Assembly: GCA_049300695.1 (NCBI GenBank)
Contig: JBAQKF010000032.1
Coordinates: 8,292 to 72,291 of the forward strand
Direction: 5' to 3'
DNA length: 64,000 nt
Source of the DNA: Usitatibacter sp.
GTDB lineage: Bacteria; Pseudomonadota; Gammaproteobacteria; Burkholderiales; Usitatibacteraceae
Under the pieces are notes generated by a model. The model saw only the letters and a program-made list of their open reading frames with translations. It did not search any database and had not been told where the DNA came from. The position numbers were made by a program, and so were the translations under genes. Below, piece by piece: positions 24,362 through 34,884 of this stretch (its first letter is position 1; every line of letters starts with the position of its first letter).

Positions 24362-24982
24362 TCAGGGAGCCTTCTTCTCTACGAAGAACTTGCCCCTTTC
24401 CTTGGGATTCGCCTCGAGCAGCCCGACGATGAGCTCTTTCAGGTCGCCTTGCGCCGCCATGGGATCGAGGGAAGGCGCCGTGTACAGGAGCTTCACGATC
24501 TTGTTCTTGAACCCGGTGACCAGGACCCATGTGGCCATCGGGCCCTTGGTGCCGTCGGGCGCCGCGTAGGTCCAGGAGTAGAGGCCGACCCGCAGCTTCG
24601 CCACGCGCCCTTCGTTCTGGATCACCGGCGTCGATTCGGCGAACTTCTTCCCGGCGGACGCCGGTGGCATGGCGAGGAGCCGCTCTATCCCGGCTTCCGA
24701 TTGCGCGAAGGCATCGCTCACTGCCTCGGAATCCACGCCCGTCGGGATTTCGGCAAGGCCCAGGTCGTAGACGAACACCTCGCCGCGTCCCGGCCCCTCG
24801 TAGCGCACGGCCACGCCCTGCCGCGGATCGGGAAACGTGGTCGATCCGGTCCTCTGGAACCTCCCGACCTGCGCGGGAAACGTGAGACCCGTCGCGCTCT
24901 CGACGAAGGGATCGTTCGTCTGCGCGAGCGCCGCTGCCGGGAGCAGCCCGCCCAGGAAAAGACATGCCAATCCGACTCTCAT
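24362..24982 (-). CDS. Secreted hypothetical protein
   Basis: ATG at 24982 shares 1 nt with the Bug gene stop. Signal peptide MRVGLACLFLGGLLPAAALA. No family recognised. Confidence 0.6.
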   Translation of the reverse strand: MRVGLACLFLGGLLPAAALAQTNDPFVESATGLTFPAQVGRFQRTGSTTFPDPRQGVAVRYEGPGRGEVFVYDLGLAEIPTGVDSEAVSDAFAQSEAGIERLLAMPPASAGKKFAESTPVIQNEGRVAKLRVGLYSWTYAAPDGTKGPMATWVLVTGFKNKIVKLLYTAPSLDPMAAQGDLKELIVGLLEANPKERGKFFVEKKAP

Positions 24983-25938
24983 CACTCCACCTTGATGTTG
25001 AGCGCCTTTGCGACGCGTGAGTATGTCGCGATCTCGGTTGCAAGCTGATTGCCGAACGCCGCGCCGCACGTGAGGACAGGCTCGATGCCCGCCGCGACCA
25101 GGCGATCGCGCGCACTGGCGTCCTTCGCGAAGGCTTCGGCCTGCGCAATTAGCGACCGCACCACCGGTTCGGGAGTTCCCGCGGGCGCGAAGAACCCGTA
25201 CCAGACCTCCGCGCTGAATCCCTTCACGCCACCCTCCGTGAAGGTGGGCACGTCGGGCAGCAGGCGCGAGCGTTCTTCGGCCGCGACGGCGATCGCGATC
25301 AGCTTGCCCGCCTTCACCTGCGTGATTACCGAGCCCACCGTCGCCAAGTACGCGTCGACTTCACCCGCGAGCAACGCCGTGGCCGCGGGTGGCGCGCCCT
25401 TGTACGGCACGTGCGTCATCGAAAGCCCCGTGATGTTGAGGAAATTCTCCGTCGCGAGATGGACTGCGCTGCCGATGCCCACCGACGCGTAGGTGTACTT
25501 GCCCGGTTGCTCGCGGATCTTCTGCATGAATTCCGGAAGCGTCGTCACGCCGAGCCTGTGCGAGACGACAAGCACTGTCGGGCTCTTCGCGACGATGCAG
25601 ATGGGCGCGAAGGACTTCGCCACATCGAACTTCACGCGATCCGAGTAGAGCGCGGGAATCATCGCGTGGTTCTGCGCGGCGGCGAGCAGCGTGTAGCCGT
25701 CGGGCTTCGATGTCGCCACCGCATCCGTGGCGATGATCGAATTGGCGCCCGGCCGGTTTTCCACGATGAAAGGCTGCTTGAGGTCGGCGCCCGCGTGCTC
25801 GGCGAACATGCGCGCCACGATGTCGGTCGGCCCGCCCGCGGGGAAACCCACGACGATCTTCACGGGCTTGTCGGGATAGGACTGGGCGAACGCGAGGGCG
25901 CTTGCGAGCAGCAATCCGGGAAAGGCGGCGATCCTCAT
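24982..25938 (-). CDS. Tripartite tricarboxylate transporter substrate-binding protein (Bug/TctC family)
   Basis: ATG at 25938 overlaps the upstream stop (ATGA). Signal peptide, then YPDKPVKIVVGFPAGGPTDIVAR...ENRPGANS...VPYKG, the classic Bug signature. Confidence 0.9.
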   Translation of the reverse strand: MRIAAFPGLLLASALAFAQSYPDKPVKIVVGFPAGGPTDIVARMFAEHAGADLKQPFIVENRPGANSIIATDAVATSKPDGYTLLAAAQNHAMIPALYSDRVKFDVAKSFAPICIVAKSPTVLVVSHRLGVTTLPEFMQKIREQPGKYTYASVGIGSAVHLATENFLNITGLSMTHVPYKGAPPAATALLAGEVDAYLATVGSVITQVKAGKLIAIAVAAEERSRLLPDVPTFTEGGVKGFSAEVWYGFFAPAGTPEPVVRSLIAQAEAFAKDASARDRLVAAGIEPVLTCGAAFGNQLATEIATYSRVAKALNIKVE

Positions 25939-26393
25939 TTGCGTCGCGCCTTGTCCACGCGCTCGATCAAATCGTCGGCGATCGTGTTCCTCGCGAACGG
26001 ATTGAGCGTGACAGGCCTCACCGGCGAGAAGCTCACCTCCTTGCCGAACCTGGAAGGATTCACGAGGCGCAGCGTCACGCGGGGCGGATTCACCATCAGG
26101 GTCGCGCTCACGTTCATGATGTTCGAGAGGGCAATGCGATCCTCCTTGTCGCCCTTCTTCACCAGGAGGTAGTCGCCTCCGTCGTACACCTCGTCCATCA
26201 GGTCCCACACGAACTTGCGCAGGACCAGGAAGAGGATGGGGATCATGACGAGCGGCATGAAGAAGATCGCGACCGGCGGCGGGTTGCGCGGCACCGTGAG
26301 CCCGATCCCGATGGGGACCAGCATGACGACGAGGAAGAGGACCGGAAAGATCCACTTCAGGAAGTAGACTTGCTTGGATGAAATCCGGGTCAT
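25935..26393 (-). CDS. Hypothetical membrane protein (two predicted TM helices)
   Basis: 152-aa ORF with hydrophobic stretches WIFPVLFLVVMLVPIGIGL and VAIFFMPLVMIPILFLVL. Translationally coupled to the Bug gene. Confidence 0.6.
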   Translation of the reverse strand: MTRISSKQVYFLKWIFPVLFLVVMLVPIGIGLTVPRNPPPVAIFFMPLVMIPILFLVLRKFVWDLMDEVYDGGDYLLVKKGDKEDRIALSNIMNVSATLMVNPPRVTLRLVNPSRFGKEVSFSPVRPVTLNPFARNTIADDLIERVDKARRK

Positions 26394-26471: not shown

Positions 26472-27740
26472 ATGGGCGCACAGCCCGGGCACCATGTGCT
26501 CGCCGCACGGGACCTCGAGCCGATCCTGGCGGTTGCGGCCAAGCTTGCCGCACCCTTCGACCTCTCCACCATGTTGCGCGAGGTGGTGAACGCCGCCAAG
26601 CTGGTGCTCGGGGCCGAGCGGGGTTCGGTATGGCTCTACGACGAGGGCCGTGACGAGCTCGTCCTCGAGATCGCCACCGGCATCGATCCGGTGCGCGTCA
26701 AGTCGGGCACGGGGCTCGCCGGCAGTTGCGCCCGCACGCGCACCCTCATCAACGTCCCCGACTGCTACTCGGACCCGCGCTTCGACCCCGAGCTCGATCG
26801 CCGCTCGGGCTATCGCACGCGCTGCATGCTCACGATGCCGCTGGTGGACCACCGCGGCAAGCTCGTGGGCGTGATGCAGGTGCTCAACAAGTCCGAAGGC
26901 ACGTTCGAGTCCGAGGATGAAGCGCTCGCCACCGTGCTCGCGGCGCAATGCGCCATCGCGTTGCAGCGCGTGCGCATGACCGAGGCGCTCATCGAGGGCG
27001 AGAAGCTGCGCCAGCAGCTCGAGATGGCGCGCATCGTGCAGATGAGCACGCTGCCCGGCACGATGCCGGCGATCGCGGGCTACGACGTGTACGGCACCTT
27101 CAAGCCCGCGGATCTCACCGGCGGCGACACATTCGACCTTTCGCTCCTCGATGCGGGCCTGCTCATCGTGCTGGCCGACGCGACCGGGCACGGCATCGCG
27201 CCGGCGCTGTCGGTCACGCAGATGCAGGCCATGCTCCGGATGGCCTTCCGCCTCGGCGCCGACCTGGAAACCGCCTTCAAGACGGTGAACAACCAGCTCG
27301 CCGACACGCTTCCCGAGGATCGGTTCATCACCGCGTTCATCGGGCTGCTCGATCCGAAGACGCATCGCGTCCGGTTCCAGAGTGGAGGCCAGGGGCCGAT
27401 CCTGCACTTCCATGCGGCCGACGGGCAATCCACGCACCACAAGCCCACCAGCTTCCCGCTCGCGGCGATGCCGATCACGACGCTGCGCCCGTCGATCGAG
27501 ATCGTGTTCGAGCCCGGCGACATTCTCGCGCTCGTCTCCGACGGCATCTTCGAATACAACGGCCCCGCCGGCGAGGAGTTCGGCGAGGATCGCGTGAAGA
27601 AGCTGCTCGCGGCCCATCGCGGAAAACCAGTCGCGGAAATCTGCGCCCTGCTCTTCGCGGCGGTGCAGGAATTCGCCGGAGCCGCGCCCCAGGAGGACGA
27701 CATGACCGTGGTGCTCGTGAAACGCGAGCCGGCGCCGTGA
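26472..27740 (+). CDS. GAF domain-containing PP2C-type serine phosphatase (RsbU/SpoIIE family)
   Basis: N-terminal GAF (GSVWLYDEGRDELVLEIATG...GLAGSCARTR...DPRFD...MLTMPLVDHRGKLVGVMQVLNK). C-terminal PP2C/SpoIIE (GGDTFDL, VLADATGHGI, SDGIFE, QEDDMTVVLVK). Confidence 0.88.
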   Translation: MGAQPGHHVLAARDLEPILAVAAKLAAPFDLSTMLREVVNAAKLVLGAERGSVWLYDEGRDELVLEIATGIDPVRVKSGTGLAGSCARTRTLINVPDCYSDPRFDPELDRRSGYRTRCMLTMPLVDHRGKLVGVMQVLNKSEGTFESEDEALATVLAAQCAIALQRVRMTEALIEGEKLRQQLEMARIVQMSTLPGTMPAIAGYDVYGTFKPADLTGGDTFDLSLLDAGLLIVLADATGHGIAPALSVTQMQAMLRMAFRLGADLETAFKTVNNQLADTLPEDRFITAFIGLLDPKTHRVRFQSGGQGPILHFHAADGQSTHHKPTSFPLAAMPITTLRPSIEIVFEPGDILALVSDGIFEYNGPAGEEFGEDRVKKLLAAHRGKPVAEICALLFAAVQEFAGAAPQEDDMTVVLVKREPAP

Positions 27741-28474
27741 CTACCGACCGCCTGTTCGGACGCAGCTACGACTCCATCGGGGCGCTGGCCGACTTCACGC
27801 GCGAGGTCTTCACCCGCGACCAGATGGACCTTCGCATCCTGCCGCCGGTGGACTTCGTGATCGAGGAGCTCTTCACCAATATGGTCAAATACGCGACCGG
27901 CAGCGACGCGGCCGTGCGCGTGAGCCTCACCAAGGTTGCCGGGGGCGTGGAGGTGAGCCTCACCGACTTCGGCGTGGAGCGTTTCGACCCCACGCAGGGG
28001 CCCGAGGTGGATATCAACGCGCCGATCGAACAGCGGCGGCCCGGAGGCCTCGGCCTTCACCTCATCCGCAAGATGGTGGATTCCATCCACTACGACTACG
28101 AGCAGGAAAGCCGGCAGGGCCGGATCACGTTCCGCAAGACCATCCCCGACCGCAGGGGAAGCAAGACGGGAGGCGAGATGCTTCAAATCGATTTCGGCAC
28201 GGACTCCGGCACGGTGGCGATCGCAGGCCGCCTGGACGCCGCGCAGTGCCCTGCCGCCCAGGCCTTCCTCGACAAGGTGCAGGGAACGGTCACCCTCGAC
28301 TGCCGCAAGCTCGAGTACATCTCGAGCGCGGGCCTGGGCGTCCTGCTGAAGACCCAGAAGCGCCTCATGACCGGAGGCGGCAAGCTGAAGCTCGCGGGCG
28401 TGAACGCGCACCTGCGCGACATCTTCGCCTACTCGGGCTTCGACCAGATCTTCGAGATCGAGCCGGCGGCCTAG
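27737..28474 (+). CDS. Fusion protein: RsbW-like anti-sigma serine kinase (HATPase_c_2) joined in frame to a STAS anti-sigma-antagonist domain
   Basis: GTG at 27737 overlaps the phosphatase stop (GTGA). Kinase N-box EELFTNMVKYA, G-boxes DFGVERFD and RPGGLGLHLIRKM. STAS domain from codon 148 with YISSAGLGVLLK (phospho-Ser context). No stop separates the two domains. An internal GGGAGG-N5-ATG lies at 28178. Confidence 0.8.
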   Translation: MTTDRLFGRSYDSIGALADFTREVFTRDQMDLRILPPVDFVIEELFTNMVKYATGSDAAVRVSLTKVAGGVEVSLTDFGVERFDPTQGPEVDINAPIEQRRPGGLGLHLIRKMVDSIHYDYEQESRQGRITFRKTIPDRRGSKTGGEMLQIDFGTDSGTVAIAGRLDAAQCPAAQAFLDKVQGTVTLDCRKLEYISSAGLGVLLKTQKRLMTGGGKLKLAGVNAHLRDIFAYSGFDQIFEIEPAA

Positions 28475-28509: not shown

Positions 28510-29058
28510 GTGATCAGGGACCCCGACGAAACGCTGGTGGAACGCTGCCGAGGCGGCGACCGCCAGGCCCTCGCGGCCCTGATGGAGCGCTACCAGCGCG
28601 CCATCTACAACGCGGCATACCGGGTGCTTGGCAACGGGGACGATGCGGCCGACGTGACCCAGACCACGTTCCTCAAGGTGGCGGAAAGGCTGGACGAGTA
28701 TGACTCGCAATACAAGTTCTTCAGCTGGATCTACCGCATCGCGATCAACGAGTCGCTCAACACGGTGCGCCGCGATTCGCGCGACGAGCCCCTCGAGAAC
28801 GAGGACGAGCTGCCGGGCGCCAACGCCGCCGACCCGGAACGCAAGGCTTACGAATCGGAGCTCGCAGGCCGCGTGCAACTGGCGCTCATGGCGATGCGCT
28901 TCGATCATCGCATCGTGATCACGCTGCGCCACTTTTCCGACTGCAGCTACGGGGAGATCGCGTGGATCCTCGACCTGCAGGAAAAAACCGTGAAATCCCG
29001 GCTCTTCGAGGCCCGCCAGAAGCTCCGGGAGCTCCTCAAGGACTTCCAGCCCGCATGA
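28510..29058 (+). CDS. ECF (group 4) RNA polymerase sigma factor
   Basis: GTG at 28510 is the first start that preserves region 2.1. LVERCRGGDRQALAALMERYQRAIYNAAYRVLGNGDDAADVTQTTFLKV (region 2) and ITLRHFSDCSYGEIAWILDLQEKTVKSRLFEARQKL (region 4.2). Confidence 0.88.
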   Translation: MIRDPDETLVERCRGGDRQALAALMERYQRAIYNAAYRVLGNGDDAADVTQTTFLKVAERLDEYDSQYKFFSWIYRIAINESLNTVRRDSRDEPLENEDELPGANAADPERKAYESELAGRVQLALMAMRFDHRIVITLRHFSDCSYGEIAWILDLQEKTVKSRLFEARQKLRELLKDFQPA

Positions 29059-30833
29059 ACAAGAACGACGATATCCTGCAGCTGATGCACGCGGTCCTGG
29101 ACCGGGAAGCGTCTGCCGAGCAGCAGCGGGAGCTCGAGCAGCTCCTCGCCTCCGATCCGCAGGCGCGCGAACGATTCACCGAGATCGAACAGTTCTTCGC
29201 CCGGCTGGAGCGGCTGCCGGAGGAGGAGCCTCCCCCGGGCCTGGTCGAGGGCACCTTCGCCCGACTGGCGGAGAAAGCGGGGCGATTTTCCCAACCTTTG
29301 GGCGCTTCGCGTGTAAGTGATTTACATGCGGGCGACGTAGGGGCAGCATCGGCCGTCAACATCCATAAGACAACTTCTCCAAGGGATACGAACATGAACA
29401 AACGCAATCTTTGGATCGGACTGGGAGTAGGCGCGGTGGCCGTCGTGGCCGTCACGCAATACGTGTCCGAGTATCCCCCGAGCGGGGAGCAGACGACTGG
29501 CACGGTGGCGCCCGCCCAGCGCTACCGCGCCGAGCAGATCCAGTCGAGCGACGTGAAGCTGGGCGACCAGCAGGTCGCGCAGCTCATGCAAAGCGAGGCC
29601 TTCGAGAAGATCATGAAGGACCCGCAGCTGCGCGCGCTCGCCGCCGACGCGAGCTTCCAGGCGCTCGCCAAGTCCGAAGGGTTCGCCGCCCTCGCGCAGA
29701 ACGCCAACGCGTTCACCGCGCTCGCCTCGCAACCCGCAGCCTTCCAGGCGATGGCGAACAACGCGCAGTCGTTCCAGGCGCTCGCGTCCAATGCCCATTC
29801 GTTCCAGGCCGCGGCCACGCACGCCGATGCCTTCGCGGTGCTGGGACAACATGCGAGCGCATTCCAGGCGCTTGCGAGCGATGCGAAAGCCTTCCAGGCG
29901 CTCGCCAGCAACGCACAGGCGATGCAGGCCCTCGGCCAGCATGCGAGCGCGTTCCAGGCGATGGCGTCGCAGCCCCTCGCCTTCCAGGCGATGTCGCAGC
30001 ATCCGGACGCGTTCGCGCTGCTCGCGCATTATCCCGAGGCCTTCCAGGCGATGGCGGCCAACCCGAGCGCCTTCGCGGCGCTGGCGGCCAATCCTTCGGC
30101 GTTCATCGCCGCGGCGCAGAACGCCAAGTCGAACGCAGCCATGTCGTCGCACGCCGATGCGTTCATCGCGCTCTCGCAAGCCAAGGGCTTCCAGGCGCTC
30201 GCCAACAACGCCCAGGCCTTCCAGGCGATGGCGAACAACGCGCAGGCCTTCCAGGCCCTCGCGAGCAATGCGCAGGCCTTCCAGGCGCTCGGCCAGCACG
30301 CCGATGCCTTCGTCGCCATGGCGAGCAACCCGAAAGCCTTCCAGGCGCTCGCGCTGAACGCCTACGGCTTCCAGGCACTCGCGAACAACGCGCAGGCGAT
30401 GCAGGCCCTCGGGCAACATGCGAGTGCCTTCCAGGCACTCGCGAACGATGCCAAGGGCTTCCAGGCGCTCAGCCAGGCGCAGGCCTTCTCGGCGCTGGGC
30501 CAACATGCTGCTGCGTTCCAGGCGCTCGGACAACACGCCGCCGCGTTCCAGGCGCTCGCCAACAATGCGCAGGCGATGCAGGCGCTCGCGAACAACGCGC
30601 AGGCGTTCCAGGCGCTCGGACAACACGCCGCCGCGTTCCAGGCGCTCGCGAACAACGCGCAGGCGATGCAACTCCTCTCGCACAACGCCGCCGCATTCCA
30701 GGCGATGGCCAACACGCAGGGCTTCGCCGCGATGGCCGCCAATCCCGCCTTCGCGCAGGCGCTCGCGCAAGCCTCGGTGGCGCAGGGTGCGGTCGCAAGC
30801 GGCGCGGTGACCAATTCCGCGATCCAGAAGTAA
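29055..30833 (+). CDS. Single-pass membrane anti-sigma factor with a Cys-less N-terminal anti-sigma domain and a ~390-aa extracytoplasmic decapeptide-repeat region
   Basis: ATG at 29055 overlaps the sigma stop (ATGA). N-terminus LMHAVLDREASAEQQRELEQLLASDPQARERF matches the anti-sigma (ZAS-like) pattern without the Cys residues. TM helix LWIGLGVGAVAVVAVTQYV. About 39 copies of AFQALAxxAx follow. Confidence 0.75.
   Translation: MNKNDDILQLMHAVLDREASAEQQRELEQLLASDPQARERFTEIEQFFARLERLPEEEPPPGLVEGTFARLAEKAGRFSQPLGASRVSDLHAGDVGAASAVNIHKTTSPRDTNMNKRNLWIGLGVGAVAVVAVTQYVSEYPPSGEQTTGTVAPAQRYRAEQIQSSDVKLGDQQVAQLMQSEAFEKIMKDPQLRALAADASFQALAKSEGFAALAQNANAFTALASQPAAFQAMANNAQSFQALASNAHSFQAAATHADAFAVLGQHASAFQALASDAKAFQALASNAQAMQALGQHASAFQAMASQPLAFQAMSQHPDAFALLAHYPEAFQAMAANPSAFAALAANPSAFIAAAQNAKSNAAMSSHADAFIALSQAKGFQALANNAQAFQAMANNAQAFQALASNAQAFQALGQHADAFVAMASNPKAFQALALNAYGFQALANNAQAMQALGQHASAFQALANDAKGFQALSQAQAFSALGQHAAAFQALGQHAAAFQALANNAQAMQALANNAQAFQALGQHAAAFQALANNAQAMQLLSHNAAAFQAMANTQGFAAMAANPAFAQALAQASVAQGAVASGAVTNSAIQK
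29598..30773 (+). repeat. Coding tandem repeat, 30-bp (10-codon) period, about 39 units, consensus GCC TTC CAG GCG CTC GCG AAC AAC GCG CAG (AFQALANNAQ, alternating with AFQALGQHAA)
   Basis: Direct reading of the sequence shows contiguous units without spacers, all in the anti-sigma reading frame. A 68-nt block (30513-30580) recurs at +90 nt (30603-30670) with 2 mismatches. Confidence 0.9.
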
Positions 30834-30849
30834 AGCGCAGCAACTCCCG

Positions 30850-30890
30850 AAGCCGCCGGCCCTGAAAGCCGGCGGCTTTTGTTTGTTTGC
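30850..30890 (+). terminator. Rho-independent terminator after the anti-sigma gene
   Basis: 11-bp perfect stem AAGCCGCCGGC (30850-30860) / GCCGGCGGCTT (30868-30878) with a 7-nt loop, followed by TTTTGTTTGTTT. Confidence 0.65.
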
Positions 30891-30929
30891 TATCCTTCGT
30901 CGTTGCTGCAGTCTTGGGGAGAAGTCTGC

Positions 30930-33878
30930 ATGCGGTCCCGCCTTGCCTGCCTGTTGCTCGCGATCGCCTCGTTCGCCCACGCCGCCGACGAGCCCGATGC
31001 GAGCCCGCTGGCTTTGTCGTACGTCCTCACGAAGGACATGTGCCTCGTGTACCTGGACCCGACGCTCTCCTACCTCGAGCCGCACGCCGTTCGCACCTTC
31101 GCCAACTCCATGGCGTGGCAGAAGCGCACGTGGGGATGGATTCCCTATGAGCCCGTCACGGTCCTGCTGAAGGACTTCTCGGACTACGGCAACGCGAGCG
31201 CGGGAGCCTCGCCGCGCAACGCGCTCACCTTCGACATCTCGCCGCTTTCGCACGTCTTCGAGACGTACCCGGCGAGCGAGCGCATGTATTCGCTCATGAA
31301 CCACGAGCTCACCCACGTGGCGACCATGGACATGTACTCGAGCCAGGACCTCTTCTGGCGCCACCTGTTCACGGGCAAGGTCTATCCCGACGCGCAGAAC
31401 CCCGAGAGCATGATCTACGGCTACCTCACGACGCCGCGCTTCATGGTGCCGCGCTGGTACCTCGAGGGCAGCGCCGTCTTCATGGAGACGTGGATGGGCG
31501 GCGGACTCGGGCGCGCCCAGGGCGGCTACGACGAGATGGTGTTCCGCGCGATGGTGCGCGACAACGCGCGATTCTTCGATCCGCTGGGGCTCGTCTCCAA
31601 GGGCACGCGCATCGACTTCCAGGTGGGCGTGAACGCGTATCTCTACGGCACGCGCTTCATGACCTACATGGCCTATGCCCACTCGCCGGAGAAGCTGGTC
31701 GCGTGGTTGAAGCGCGACGAAGGCAGCAAGCGCTACTACTCCGACAACTTCGAGCACGTGTACGGCATGCCCCTCGAGAAAGCGTGGGACGAGTGGATCG
31801 CCTTCGAGCACGAATTCCAGCAGAAGAACCTCGCGGAGGTTCGCAAGTTCCCGGTGACGAAGCATCGCGACCTCGTGCCCAGGGCGCTGGGCTCGGTCTC
31901 GCGCGCCTACTACGACCCGTCCACCAACACGCTCTATGGCGCGTACCGGTATCCGGGCACGGTCGAGCACGTCGGCGCGTTGAGCCTCAAGGACGGCACC
32001 ATCGAGCACCTGGCCGACGTGAAGGGCGCGATGCTCTACAAGGTGACCTCGCTCGCCTTCGACCCGGACACGAAGACGCTCTTCTACACGAGCGACAACT
32101 ACGCGCTTCGCGACATCCGCTCCATCGACGTGAAGACGGGCGTGGAACGCATGCTCCTCGAGGACCAGCGCATCGGCGACATCGTGTTCGACCGCCAGGA
32201 CCGGTCGCTCTGGGGCGTGCGCCACTCCAACGGACTGGCGACACTCGTGCACATTCCCTACCCGTACGACGACTGGAAGCAGGTCCACACCTTCCCGTAC
32301 GGCGTGGAAGCGTACGACCTCGACGTCTCGCCCGACGGCAAGCTCCTGTCCGCCTCGATGAGCGAGGTGAACGGCGACCAATTCCTCCGCGTCTTCGACA
32401 TCGACAAGGTGCTGGCGGGCGACTTGAAGCCGCGCAGCGAATACAAGTTCGGCGGCTCGGTGCCCGAGGGGTTCAACTTCACGCGCGACGGCAAGTATCT
32501 CTACGGCTCGAGCTACTACACGGGTGTCTCGAACATCTTCCGCTACGAGGTCGCGACCGGAGAGGTCGAGGCCGTGTCGAACGCCGAGTCCGGATACTTC
32601 CGCCCGGTGGAGCTGGGCGACGGCACGCTCATGGTCTTCCACTACACCGGCCAGGGATTCACGCCGGTCGCGATCGATCCGAAGGTCGTGAAGGACGTGA
32701 GCGCGATCACGTTCCTCGGCACCGCGCTCGTGGACAAATACCCGGTGCTCAAGACGTGGCAGGTGCCGCCGCCTTCGACGGTGGACGACGAGAAGCTCGT
32801 CATCGCGAAGGGCCCGTACGTGCCGCTCCGCACGCTGGGACTCGAGAGCTCGTATCCCGTGCTCCAGGGCTACAAGGACTCCGTGGGCGTGGGATACCAC
32901 GTGAACTTCACCGATCCGCTTCGCCTCGGGAAGATCGATCTCACGGCCGCCTACACGCCGAGCGACAGCCTGCCGCAGACCGAGAAGGGACACTTCGAGG
33001 CGAAGTACCACTACCTCGACTGGACCGGATCGGTTTCCTACAACCGCTCGGACTTCTACGACATCTTCGGTCCCACCAAGTTGAGCCGCAAGGGCTATGC
33101 CGCGGTCCTCGACTACGACCACTTCCTGATATTCGACGAGCCGCGCAGGCTCCAGTTGAAATCCGAGATCGCGTACTACTACAAGCTCGACGCGCTTCCC
33201 TCGTTCCAGAACGTTCCCACGACGGCGGACCGTCTCGCGAGCGGCGAGATCGGCCTGTACTACACGTTCGTGCGCAAGTCGTTGGGCGCCGTGGACGACG
33301 AGAAGGGATTGCTCTGGAACGTCGTGGCGGGCGTGAACGACGCGCAGGGCACCGCGTATCCGCAACTGCGCGGCCAGCTCGACTTCGGCTTCGCCCTTCC
33401 ATTTGCGAACTCGTCCCTCTGGATCCGCAACGCCGCGGGCGCCTCGCATGGCGACCGCAGCTCGCCCTTCGCGAATTTCTTCCTGGGCGCCTTCGGCAAC
33501 AACTACGTCGACAGCCGCTCCATCAAGCGTTATCGCGAGTGGTACGCTTTCCCGGGCTTCGACATCGACGAGATCAACGGGAAATCGTTCGCGCGCAGCA
33601 TGGTCGAGGTGAACGGGCCGCCCTACGTATTCGAATCCGCGGGCACGCCCAGTTTCTACCTCAACTACCTGCGTCCCGCGGTGTTCGCCTCCGAGCTCGT
33701 GACCGATCCCAATGACAGCCGGTACCGCATCCGGTACAACAACATCGGCACGCAGGTCGACATGCGCTTCAGCGTGCTTCACTGGTTCGAGATGACGCTC
33801 TCGGCGGGATATGCCGTGGGATACAAGGAAAGCAAGCGCTCCGGCGACGAATGGATGCTCTCCCTCAAGATCATGTAG
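30930..33878 (+). CDS. Large secreted protein: N-terminal HExxH metallopeptidase-like domain, central PD40/TolB-type beta-propeller repeats, C-terminal beta-strand-rich (possible outer-membrane barrel) region
   Basis: ATG at 30930 after GGGGAGAAG. Signal peptide MRSRLACLLLAIASFAHA. LMNHELTHV (HExxH). Repeated propeller-like YDLDVSPDGKLL and FNFTRDGKYLYG. The C-terminal 330 aa have alternating aromatic/hydrophobic strands (IAYYYKL, IGLYYTF, LDFGFALPF, VDMRFSVLHWFEMTLSAGYAVGY). Confidence 0.75.
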   Translation: MRSRLACLLLAIASFAHAADEPDASPLALSYVLTKDMCLVYLDPTLSYLEPHAVRTFANSMAWQKRTWGWIPYEPVTVLLKDFSDYGNASAGASPRNALTFDISPLSHVFETYPASERMYSLMNHELTHVATMDMYSSQDLFWRHLFTGKVYPDAQNPESMIYGYLTTPRFMVPRWYLEGSAVFMETWMGGGLGRAQGGYDEMVFRAMVRDNARFFDPLGLVSKGTRIDFQVGVNAYLYGTRFMTYMAYAHSPEKLVAWLKRDEGSKRYYSDNFEHVYGMPLEKAWDEWIAFEHEFQQKNLAEVRKFPVTKHRDLVPRALGSVSRAYYDPSTNTLYGAYRYPGTVEHVGALSLKDGTIEHLADVKGAMLYKVTSLAFDPDTKTLFYTSDNYALRDIRSIDVKTGVERMLLEDQRIGDIVFDRQDRSLWGVRHSNGLATLVHIPYPYDDWKQVHTFPYGVEAYDLDVSPDGKLLSASMSEVNGDQFLRVFDIDKVLAGDLKPRSEYKFGGSVPEGFNFTRDGKYLYGSSYYTGVSNIFRYEVATGEVEAVSNAESGYFRPVELGDGTLMVFHYTGQGFTPVAIDPKVVKDVSAITFLGTALVDKYPVLKTWQVPPPSTVDDEKLVIAKGPYVPLRTLGLESSYPVLQGYKDSVGVGYHVNFTDPLRLGKIDLTAAYTPSDSLPQTEKGHFEAKYHYLDWTGSVSYNRSDFYDIFGPTKLSRKGYAAVLDYDHFLIFDEPRRLQLKSEIAYYYKLDALPSFQNVPTTADRLASGEIGLYYTFVRKSLGAVDDEKGLLWNVVAGVNDAQGTAYPQLRGQLDFGFALPFANSSLWIRNAAGASHGDRSSPFANFFLGAFGNNYVDSRSIKRYREWYAFPGFDIDEINGKSFARSMVEVNGPPYVFESAGTPSFYLNYLRPAVFASELVTDPNDSRYRIRYNNIGTQVDMRFSVLHWFEMTLSAGYAVGYKESKRSGDEWMLSLKIM

Positions 33879-33885
33879 GACGCCC

Positions 33886-34884
33886 TTGGCTCCGATCGTC
33901 GTAGGGCTGGCGCCCGTCATCACATTCCTCGTGGCGCTGGTCCTGCTGGACAGCTACAAGCTCGTGAAACTCTGGCTCGTGGTCCTGGCGGTGGCCTGCG
34001 GCATCGTCGCGGCTTTCATCGCCTACGGCGCCAATGGCCTGGTGCTCGAGCACGCGCAGGTCGGATTCCTCAATCACACGCGATACGTGGCGCCCCTCAT
34101 CGAGGAATTCCTGAAGGGCGTGGTGATCGTGGCGCTGATCCGCACGCATCGCATCGGATTCCTCGTGGACGCGGCGATCTTCGGGTTCGCGGTGGGCGCC
34201 GGATTCGCTATGGTCGAGAACCTGGTCTACCTCCAGCAATTTCCCGACGCGACCATGGGCACGTGGAACGTCCGCGGCTTTGGCACCGCGATCATGCACG
34301 GCGGCGCCACGGCGATCTTCGCGATGGTGGGACTCACGATGATGGATCGCTCGGGCAAGGCGGCGCTCCGCGCCTTCCTGCCCGGATATGCGATGGCGGT
34401 GGTCCTGCACTCGGCGTTCAACCACTTCTTCCTGTCGCCGAAGCTCTCGACTTTCGGCGTCGCGATCGTCGTCCCCGCGTTGCTCTACCTGGTGTATGAG
34501 CGCTCCGAGAAGGCGCTGGGCCAATGGCTGGGCACCGGATTCGATGCGGACACGGAGATGCTGCACCTCATCAACTCGGGTTCGCTCTCGGATTCGCCGG
34601 TGGGCCGCTACCTGCACGAGCTGAAGGACCGCTTCGAAGGACCGATCGTCGCCGACATCCTCTGCTACCTGCGCCTGTACACGGAGCTCGCGTTGCGCGC
34701 CAAGGGCGTGCTGATGATGCGCGAAAACGGATTCAACACGCCCATCGACGAGGCGACGCGCGCGAAGTTCGTCGAGATGCGCTACCTGGAAGGCAGCATC
34801 GGCAAGACCGCGCTCTTGGCGATCCAGCCGATGCTGCACATGAGCCACAAGGACCTGTGGCAGCTCTACATGCTCGGGAAGTAG
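33886..34884 (+). CDS. PrsW-family intramembrane metalloprotease with a ~120-aa C-terminal soluble extension
   Basis: TTG at 33886 is the first start after the upstream stop, and the start is uncertain. Motifs EEFLKG (EExxK), GFAMVEN (FxxxE), HGGATA and HSAFNH (HxxxN) lie in successive TM helices. Confidence 0.78.
   Translation: MAPIVVGLAPVITFLVALVLLDSYKLVKLWLVVLAVACGIVAAFIAYGANGLVLEHAQVGFLNHTRYVAPLIEEFLKGVVIVALIRTHRIGFLVDAAIFGFAVGAGFAMVENLVYLQQFPDATMGTWNVRGFGTAIMHGGATAIFAMVGLTMMDRSGKAALRAFLPGYAMAVVLHSAFNHFFLSPKLSTFGVAIVVPALLYLVYERSEKALGQWLGTGFDADTEMLHLINSGSLSDSPVGRYLHELKDRFEGPIVADILCYLRLYTELALRAKGVLMMRENGFNTPIDEATRAKFVEMRYLEGSIGKTALLAIQPMLHMSHKDLWQLYMLGK

Follow-up and report, generated by a model that had tools for sequence, protein, structure and literature searches.

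A stop-free kinase–STAS fusion with a putative inherited internal start in an ECF sigma factor cassette from Usitatibacter

Introduction

A stretch of 64,000 nucleotides (nt) from a Usitatibacter sp. genome (GenBank assembly GCA_049300695.1, contig JBAQKF010000032.1, positions 8,292 to 72,291)—hereafter the window—contains a gene in which an RsbW/SpoIIAB-type serine kinase is joined, without an intervening stop codon, to a STAS domain of the kind found in anti-sigma-factor antagonists. This kinase–STAS gene lies between genes for a GAF-PP2C phosphatase and a sigma factor of the extracytoplasmic function (ECF) type, followed by a gene for an anti-sigma-like protein. Partner switching depends on the relative amounts of kinase and antagonist and on the kinetics with which they bind and release each other. 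Here, we compare the window with fused and split relatives and conclude that it probably carries a stable kinase–STAS fusion that was formed by stop-codon loss, acts as a tethered switch, retains an internal start and has the adjacent ECF sigma/anti-sigma pair as its target.

Methods

Homologues of the kinase–STAS protein were sought among 5.8 billion proteins, yielding 930 matches at E ≤ 1e-5. Gene organisation was compared across 80 loci from species-level genomes and another 80 from metagenomes, with the fused or split state assigned from stop-to-stop open reading frames (ORFs). High-scoring segment pairs from tblastn pass through in-frame stops and are hence unreliable alone; taking a single such pair as a fused gene was rejected when ORF analysis made most of these loci split.

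Results

One gene encodes both domains

The kinase–STAS gene runs on the forward strand from a GTG codon at 27737 to a TAG at 28472–28474 and encodes 245 amino acids (aa) with no internal stop (Table 1). Its GTG overlaps the TGA (27738–27740) of the upstream phosphatase gene as GTGA, the phosphatase being read in another frame. Pfam places HATPase_c_2 (PF13581) at residues 14–125 (E = 2e-16; 60.5 bits against a cut-off of 27.4) and STAS_2/STAS at residues 160–243 (E = 5e-14 and 6e-11; 52.6 bits against 29.2 for PF13466 and 42.6 against 22.6 for PF01740), while the STAS domain also matches TIGR00377 (59 bits against a cut-off of 53.45). Translation and domain matches thus bear out an original prediction, made from the DNA letters, of an RsbW-type kinase and a complete STAS domain within one stop-free ORF. 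The motifs then listed are all present: the N-box EELFTNMVKYA at residues 43–53, the G-boxes and YISSAGLGVL at residues 194–203. DFGVERF and GGLGLHL are also there, and the kinase motif residues read E44-L-F-T-N48, D77-F-G and G103-G-L-G106. Stand-alone STAS antagonists consist of a single domain; here the domain sits in frame behind the kinase with no stop between them. The internal ORF of 98 aa that begins at ATG 28178 still scores as a complete STAS domain in Pfam when taken alone, and a stand-alone form would exist only if that ATG were used.

Table 1. Coordinates of the kinase–STAS gene, its internal features and the genes around it in the window.
Feature	Coordinates	Strand	Basis
Kinase–STAS fusion gene, 245 aa	27737..28474	+	Homologues start MSTDRLF or MTDRVF at the same position
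RsbW/SpoIIAB-type GHKL serine kinase/anti-sigma domain, aa 14–125, fold to ~aa 135	27776..28111	+	PF13581, invariant residues, Foldseek
N-box, E44..N48	27863–27895	+	Within kinase domain
G2 box, GGLGLHL	28043–28063	+	Within kinase domain
Basic disordered linker, aa 136–147, IPDRRGSKTGGE	28142..28177	+	AlphaFold 2 pLDDT; alignment to split orthologues
GGGAGG Shine-Dalgarno motif	28168..28173	+	Shine-Dalgarno energy, rare GGA codon signature
In-frame ATG, codon 148 (Met148), candidate internal initiation site	28178..28180	+	Start of split STAS genes
STAS (anti-sigma-factor antagonist) domain, aa 148–245	28178..28471	+	Pfam, TIGR00377, Foldseek
Predicted phospho-acceptor Ser197	28325–28327	+	Alignment to SpoIIAA 1TH8_B
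GAF-SpoIIE/PP2C serine phosphatase gene, 422 aa, presumed input phosphatase	26472..27740	+	Pfam SpoIIE E = 9e-41, GAF E = 4e-23
ECF sigma factor gene, ~182 aa	28510..29058	+	Pfam Sigma70_r2 and r4_2; TIGR02937
Anti-sigma-like protein, 592 aa	29055..30833	+	Weak NCBIfam anti-sigma matches, E = 2.5e-4; conserved N-terminus after ECF

The fused architecture is widely conserved. Nearly all of the best ~115 matches are 243–248 aa long and carry both Pfam domains, with 48–99% identity to the query. Their sources are assemblies of JGI, ENA, NCBI and Logan, and those with names are Usitatibacter sp. and Burkholderiales metagenome-assembled genomes. More than 110 protein clusters within this range of identity share the uninterrupted architecture of ~245 aa, and both domains are found in 112 full-length homologues of 230–262 aa, so that the HATPase_c_2–STAS fusion picked out in the original prediction has conserved two-domain counterparts in the databases. 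No variation occurs at Ser196, Ser197 or the N-box and G-box residues of the kinase among 32 aligned sequences or, again, among 113, with E44, N48, D77, G103, G104 and G106 invariant across the clade; judged by this conservation, the fusion is functional. The two-domain arrangement is found again, at 30–37% identity, in many unrelated 50%-identity clusters, and one protein (P0228) carries a kinase followed by two STAS domains. NCBIfam holds no specific model for the two-domain architecture, and the protein is named only ‘anti-sigma factor antagonist’.

The fusion descends from two separate genes

Truly fused genes occur in 29 of the 158 classified loci: the window itself, 26 metagenome loci (62–91% identity) and, at ~41% identity, the gammaproteobacterial loci L009 and L010. 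These two lie outside the trees described below and are taken, from their distance, to represent a separate fusion event. The other 129 loci have a kinase gene of ~135–155 codons directly followed by a STAS gene of ~98–100 codons, the start codon of which is the exact equivalent of Met148. An exhaustive HMMER search gave the same picture at the protein level, with stand-alone STAS proteins (98–100 aa, up to 75% identical) beginning at query residue 148 and stand-alone kinases ending around residue 136–150; fusions of PP2C to kinase were also found.

Among 69 distinct split junctions, the commonest distance from kinase stop to STAS ATG is +3 nt, an arrangement of stop, one codon and ATG in a single frame (for example GGGGGAtagGGAATG, ACGGGAGAAtaaGAAATG and GACAGGAAGtaaAGCATG); the remainder show 0 nt or an overlap of 4–14 nt. 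Split orthologues have a stop 0–13 codons before the STAS ATG, or an overlap in another frame; the window’s clade has no such stop. When split orthologues are aligned, their stop codon falls in the window’s linker, which represents the 3′ end of the former kinase gene together with the stop that was lost. In-frame junctions make up 49 of the 69 (in loci such as L003, L006, L017, L098–L102, L106 and L131–L160), a proportion that is uninterpretable as evidence for read-through, because loci were ranked by tblastn E-value, which biases the sample towards in-frame pairs, and many are closely related. A stop and no more than one codon between genes in the same frame would make both fusion and fission one-base events.

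Apart from L009 and L010, the fused loci form one clade on the tree of kinase plus STAS. On an independent tree built from the neighbouring PP2C and ECF genes, the fused clade appears in 52 of 60 bootstraps, with L106 nested within it or as its sister. L106 is split by an in-frame TAA and reads ACG GGA GAA TAA GAA ATG where the window has ACG GGA GGC GAG ATG; a single altered base in a stop codon right ahead of the ATG would be enough for fusion. Since the fused loci form a clade on both trees, we conclude, on sequence grounds, that the fused state arose once in this Usitatibacter-like betaproteobacterial lineage by loss of a stop codon. It has lasted down to ~60% protein identity, with differences at four-fold sites of 0.33–0.64 between most fused lineages (0.23 for the closest of the pairs compared). 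The original prediction had allowed that orthologues might uniformly consist of two genes; most orthologous operons are indeed split, while the window’s whole clade is fused.

Other fusion states exist in the family, including PP2C and kinase in one chain with a separate STAS protein (P0123, P0128 and clostridial loci). Three stages are therefore seen: three genes; PP2C–kinase plus STAS; and PP2C plus kinase–STAS. One further protein of 337 aa, P0120, matches PP2C, kinase and STAS, although its linker looks scrambled and it may stem from a frameshifted assembly.

The internal ribosome-binding site appears to be maintained

Because STAS genes in split loci start at the equivalent of Met148, the internal Shine-Dalgarno–ATG of the window is best explained as inherited from the once separate STAS gene, whose ribosome-binding site it is by descent. 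Homology to separate STAS starts, rather than chance, accounts for its position. Counts of the bare pattern GGGAGGNNNNATG (one in the window against 0.52 expected) are not significant alone and were rejected as a measure of Shine-Dalgarno significance in favour of homology and codon-level tests.

Predicted pairing with the anti-Shine-Dalgarno sequence at ATG 28178 reaches −10.3 kcal/mol, in the top 0.44% of all ATG and GTG codons in the window and by far the strongest in the operon. The fusion gene’s own GTG at 27737 pairs weakly (−2.8 kcal/mol) and for this reason is probably translationally coupled, stop to start, to the phosphatase gene. All 29 fused loci have ATG or GTG as codon 148, with GTG as the codon for each valine there, and 113 fused proteins have methionine (105), valine (7) or leucine (1) at this position. 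Just upstream of codon 148, all fused lineages but L095 use rare AGG, AGA or GGA codons, which form AGGGA, GGGAG(G) or AGGAGG motifs; L095 still has GGGAG, read from CGG GAG. In pooled usage from the same genes, AGR supplies 16 of 391 arginine codons and GGA 34 of 385 glycine codons; other conserved arginine and glycine columns have drifted among CGC/CGG and GGC/GGG. In 19 of 20 distinct sequences, redrawing synonymous codons with the amino acids kept gives a weaker Shine-Dalgarno than the observed one in 95–99% of cases. The rare-codon signature has p values of 0.012–0.05 per lineage, to be read in the light of a common ancestor for these lineages and of the placing of Met148 in a conserved strand. 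Energies in fused genes (−4.8 to −10.3 kcal/mol) fall inside the range of STAS starts in split relatives (median −6.9 kcal/mol), and the L009/L010 fusion also keeps GGAG and ATG. The internal Shine-Dalgarno–ATG highlighted in the original prediction is thus a genuine ribosome-binding site by descent, with codon-level signs of maintenance, and it appears to have been maintained within the fused gene.

The strongest competing explanation accepts the fusion but treats this site as a mere fossil, with the 245-aa protein as the sole product and the purine-rich codons kept by inheritance or by the need to encode a basic linker of arginine, lysine, glycine and glutamate. Several points weigh on its side. 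Met148 is part of a strand (MLAI) that is itself strongly conserved, the neighbouring residues being 95–99% conserved, so that conservation of Met148 need not mean start-codon function. The Shine-Dalgarno is weak in the RKPRDKN subclade (−4.8 to −6.4 kcal/mol, rank 0.08–0.26 against the in-gene background). All fused lineages of the clade share one ancestor, and the rare-codon signal could partly be inherited through an ancestor with a working site. The pattern count in the window, as noted, carries no significance by itself. Finally, while the original prediction was right about GGGAGG and its place at the STAS boundary, the spacer between 28168–28173 and ATG 28178 measures 4 nt, rather than the 5 nt then given, which is short. 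Set against these points are the recoding test, which ranks the site in the top 1–5% in 19 of 20 sequences even with amino acids preserved; the drift of other arginine and glycine columns and the divergence of 33–64% at four-fold sites; the GGAG and ATG of the independent L009/L010 fusion; and the lack of any non-start residue at position 148 in 113 proteins. On balance, a fossil site is a serious possibility, held with perhaps half the conviction that we give to the preferred reading as a whole. Two products from one gene are plausible, and we lean modestly towards production of a free 98-aa STAS protein from the internal start.

A conserved cassette links the fusion to an ECF sigma factor

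The gene order GAF-PP2C phosphatase, kinase, STAS, ECF sigma and anti-sigma-like protein is conserved in nearly all proteobacterial loci. Nearly all related loci have the phosphatase gene directly upstream of the kinase, and in the window the ECF gene follows the fusion gene after 35 nt, so that a partner-switching operon is bracketed by a conserved phosphatase (joined by the GTGA overlap) and a conserved ECF sigma gene. In most cassette loci, the ECF gene is 41–67% identical to that of the window and lies 40–220 nt (usually 40–120 nt) downstream of STAS; equivalents of 41–50% identity occur at 40–220 nt in Ignavibacteria, Acidobacteriota, Calditrichota, Latescibacterota and other loci. The usual state of clostridial and Bacteroidales relatives (L037–L075), at ~30% identity, is a PP2C–kinase fusion with no ECF gene. 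The anti-sigma-like gene begins with an ATG that overlaps the sigma stop as ATGA. The protein that it encodes has an anti-sigma-like region at the N-terminus and then an extended array of 10-aa repeats; in many loci this N-terminus is conserved behind the ECF gene.

Gene linkage makes the adjacent ECF sigma/anti-sigma pair the likely output of the module. Two considerations count against this assignment: RsbW-type kinases are known to bind group-3 sigma factors rather than ECF sigma factors, and the cassette has an anti-sigma-like gene of its own, which leaves the target of the kinase uncertain. An alternative that we regard as possible, though doubtful, is that kinase and STAS drive another output through the STAS domain, as do BtrU/W/V in Bordetella and SiaABC/HsbA in Pseudomonas aeruginosa, and that linkage to the ECF gene reflects co-expression only. 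That idea draws support from the anti-sigma-like gene that already follows the ECF gene, from the clostridial relatives that do without an ECF gene and from Bordetella, where BtrS and a PP2C/kinase/STAS set share a locus and the switch acts on secretion (PMC7498569). It fits poorly with a kinase–STAS–ECF order and gaps of 40–220 nt that are kept across Proteobacteria, Ignavibacteria, Acidobacteriota, Calditrichota and Latescibacterota, which is the pattern expected of direct functional partners.

Additional features were seen in and around the cassette. The anti-sigma-like protein has one predicted membrane segment (LWIGLGVGAVAVVAVTQYV) and ~400 residues of 10-aa repeats of the type AFQALA(N/S)NAQ, while Tandem Repeats Finder reports period-30 arrays at 29730–30717 with up to 16 copies in one run. 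No credible Pfam family was found for this protein: a single match, PMG, barely exceeds its cut-off (30.2 bits against 29), includes no passing stretch and looks like low complexity in the repeats. The putative GTG start of the ECF gene at 28510 lacks a good Shine-Dalgarno (−3.0), and the 35-nt spacer between STAS and ECF contains TCCAAC-N16-TGTAAT, a possible promoter-like pair. Directly after the cassette, positions 30879–33878 (+) encode a large secreted protein of ~982–999 aa, which may be a target of the ECF sigma factor. It contains the HExxH motif MNHELTHV, resembles beta-propeller/WD40-like families weakly and matches the Omp85 superfamily at its C-terminus (E = 1e-5). Upstream of the cassette, the opposite strand at 24982–26393 (−) carries a tricarboxylate-binding protein of the TctC/Bug family (Pfam E = 1e-64) and a membrane-like ORF of 152 aa with no family match. 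Very long antisense or off-frame ORFs, such as that of 1533 aa at 29322–33923 (−), look like high-GC artefacts.

Kinase and predicted phospho-acceptor motifs are intact

An AlphaFold 2 model of the monomer contains two confident domains (mean predicted local distance difference test score, pLDDT, of 83) and a linker with pLDDT below 50 at residues 139–147. According to Foldseek, the fold of the N-terminal domain matches SpoIIAB, RsbW and UsfX (1L0O, 1TH8_A, 1TIL, 6M36_A and 8IH8; target template modelling (TM) scores of 0.67–0.84) and that of the C-terminal domain matches RsbV (TM 0.88–0.90), SpoIIAA and TM1442. In a profile search against sequences of the PDB, YISS197AGLGV lines up with the FMDSSGLGV stretch of SpoIIAA (1TH8_B), placing Ser197 on the known SpoIIAA phospho-serine, the serine after the aspartate. 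The phosphorylatable-serine context recognised in the original prediction therefore holds up, this serine being as invariant as the kinase motifs, and from the invariance of N-box, G-box and serine it is reasonable to infer that the tethered STAS domain would be phosphorylated in cis or in trans. The orientation of the domains in the monomer is not confident (predicted TM score, pTM, of 0.54), which leaves docking in cis across a linker of ~14 residues conjectural; docking of the STAS domain on its own kinase was rejected as a modelled result, as no confident interdomain geometry was obtained.

It is improbable that the N-terminal domain is a pseudokinase that only binds, with the tethered STAS acting as a permanent intramolecular inhibitor or scaffold and no phosphorylation cycle. 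Kinase activity has been lost in some RsbW-like proteins, and the title of a 2008 paper by Sachdeva on Rv1364c, cited in PMC7693655, reports such a loss. Across the clade, though, E44, N48, D77, G103, G104, G106 and Ser196/Ser197 have not changed, and the PP2C gene is always adjacent and coupled, which would be pointless without phosphorylation. As for the missed stop or frameshift between two ordinary genes that the original prediction had allowed for, many close relatives are only one in-frame stop codon away from the fused state and a single base error could mimic a fusion, but so many independent fused homologues (the same ~245-aa ORF in more than 110 independent clusters, 28 independently assembled fused loci and a clade recovered from neighbouring genes) rule out a sequencing or assembly artefact almost completely.

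Discussion

Taking SpoIIAB/SpoIIAA, RsbW/RsbV and Rv1364c as paradigms, we infer how a tethered kinase–STAS switch would work. The unphosphorylated STAS domain would occupy its own kinase domain, or that of a dimer partner, keeping the kinase off its target; phosphorylation of Ser197 by the kinase would release the STAS domain; and the GAF-PP2C phosphatase would reset the switch in response to a signal picked up by its GAF domain. The linker of ~12–14 residues would fix a stoichiometry of at least 1:1 and a high local concentration. A free 98-aa STAS protein is probably still made from the retained Shine-Dalgarno–ATG at 28168–28180, which would leave STAS in excess over kinase, and the target would most likely be the adjacent ECF sigma/anti-sigma pair. 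A bolder version, which we put forward tentatively and think unlikely as a whole, is that dual output is deliberate—a tethered switch from a weak coupled start plus extra free STAS from the strong internal one—and that, by a route not described so far, an RsbW-type phospho-switch sensed through GAF-PP2C controls ECF sigma/anti-sigma pairs in many phyla. If true, such dual output would hard-wire an antagonist-to-kinase ratio above one.

What we find most interesting is the codon-level evidence that an old ribosome-binding site has been maintained, with its prediction of two products, together with the conserved link to an ECF sigma factor. A retained internal site offers a clean example of how a fusion can keep separate expression of the downstream partner. 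A tethered clade beside sister lineages that are one stop codon away provides a natural comparison for the sensitivity and noise of the switch. Conservation of the cassette further suggests control of some ECF sigma factors by a phospho-switch of the SpoIIE/RsbW/STAS type. No ECF group tied to a PP2C/RsbW/STAS switch was found in the main text of the ECF classification or in a review of non-canonical ECF sigma factors. In a limited literature search, no text was found on two-domain kinase–STAS proteins or on an internal start within them.

Comparison with known systems

The window protein shares with the SpoIIAB/SpoIIAA and RsbW/RsbV pairs of Bacillus its domain families, N-box, G-box, phospho-serine context and a PP2C enzyme for resetting the switch. 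Those pairs are separate proteins that serve group-3 sigma factors, whereas the window combines both partners in one chain beside an ECF sigma gene. Gene order differs too, running antagonist, kinase and sigma in Bacillus and kinase then antagonist in the window.

A closer parallel is Rv1364c of Mycobacterium tuberculosis, a PAS-PP2C-RsbW-RsbV chain, the domains of which phosphorylate and dephosphorylate its own STAS domain at Ser600 (PMC7693655, PMC9138534). Both proteins hold kinase and STAS in one polypeptide with the kinase N-terminal, the phosphatase–kinase–STAS order of domains in Rv1364c equals the gene order of the cassette and the RsbU-RsbW structure of Rv1364c (3KE6) is matched by the window model in Foldseek. 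However, the similarity is at the level of domain families only; the window’s phosphatase is a separate gene, joined by the GTGA overlap and equipped with a GAF rather than a PAS sensor, and its neighbour is an ECF sigma factor rather than a group-3 sigma factor such as SigF. The texts read on Rv1364c contain no discussion of an internal Shine-Dalgarno–ATG. With this precedent, and with the architecture recurring in unrelated clusters, the covalent link between kinase and substrate is already known, so that the impression of unusualness given in the original prediction is right only in part.

Components of partner switching are also combined in one chain in HsbR, CrsR and SypE (as in P0123, P0128 and the clostridial loci), but there two enzymes are fused and the STAS protein is free, whereas in the window an enzyme is fused to its substrate. 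The btr locus of Bordetella resembles the cassette in its make-up, bringing an ECF sigma gene (BtrS) together with a PP2C/kinase/STAS set (BtrU/BtrW/BtrV); it differs in that the genes are separate and dispersed among unrelated genes and the switch acts on type III secretion, by a mechanism that is unknown (PMC7498569). Split orthologues (for example L098–L102, L106, L131–L160, P0122 and P0125) share the five-gene cassette at 48–67% identity and have the STAS start codon and its Shine-Dalgarno at the homologous position.

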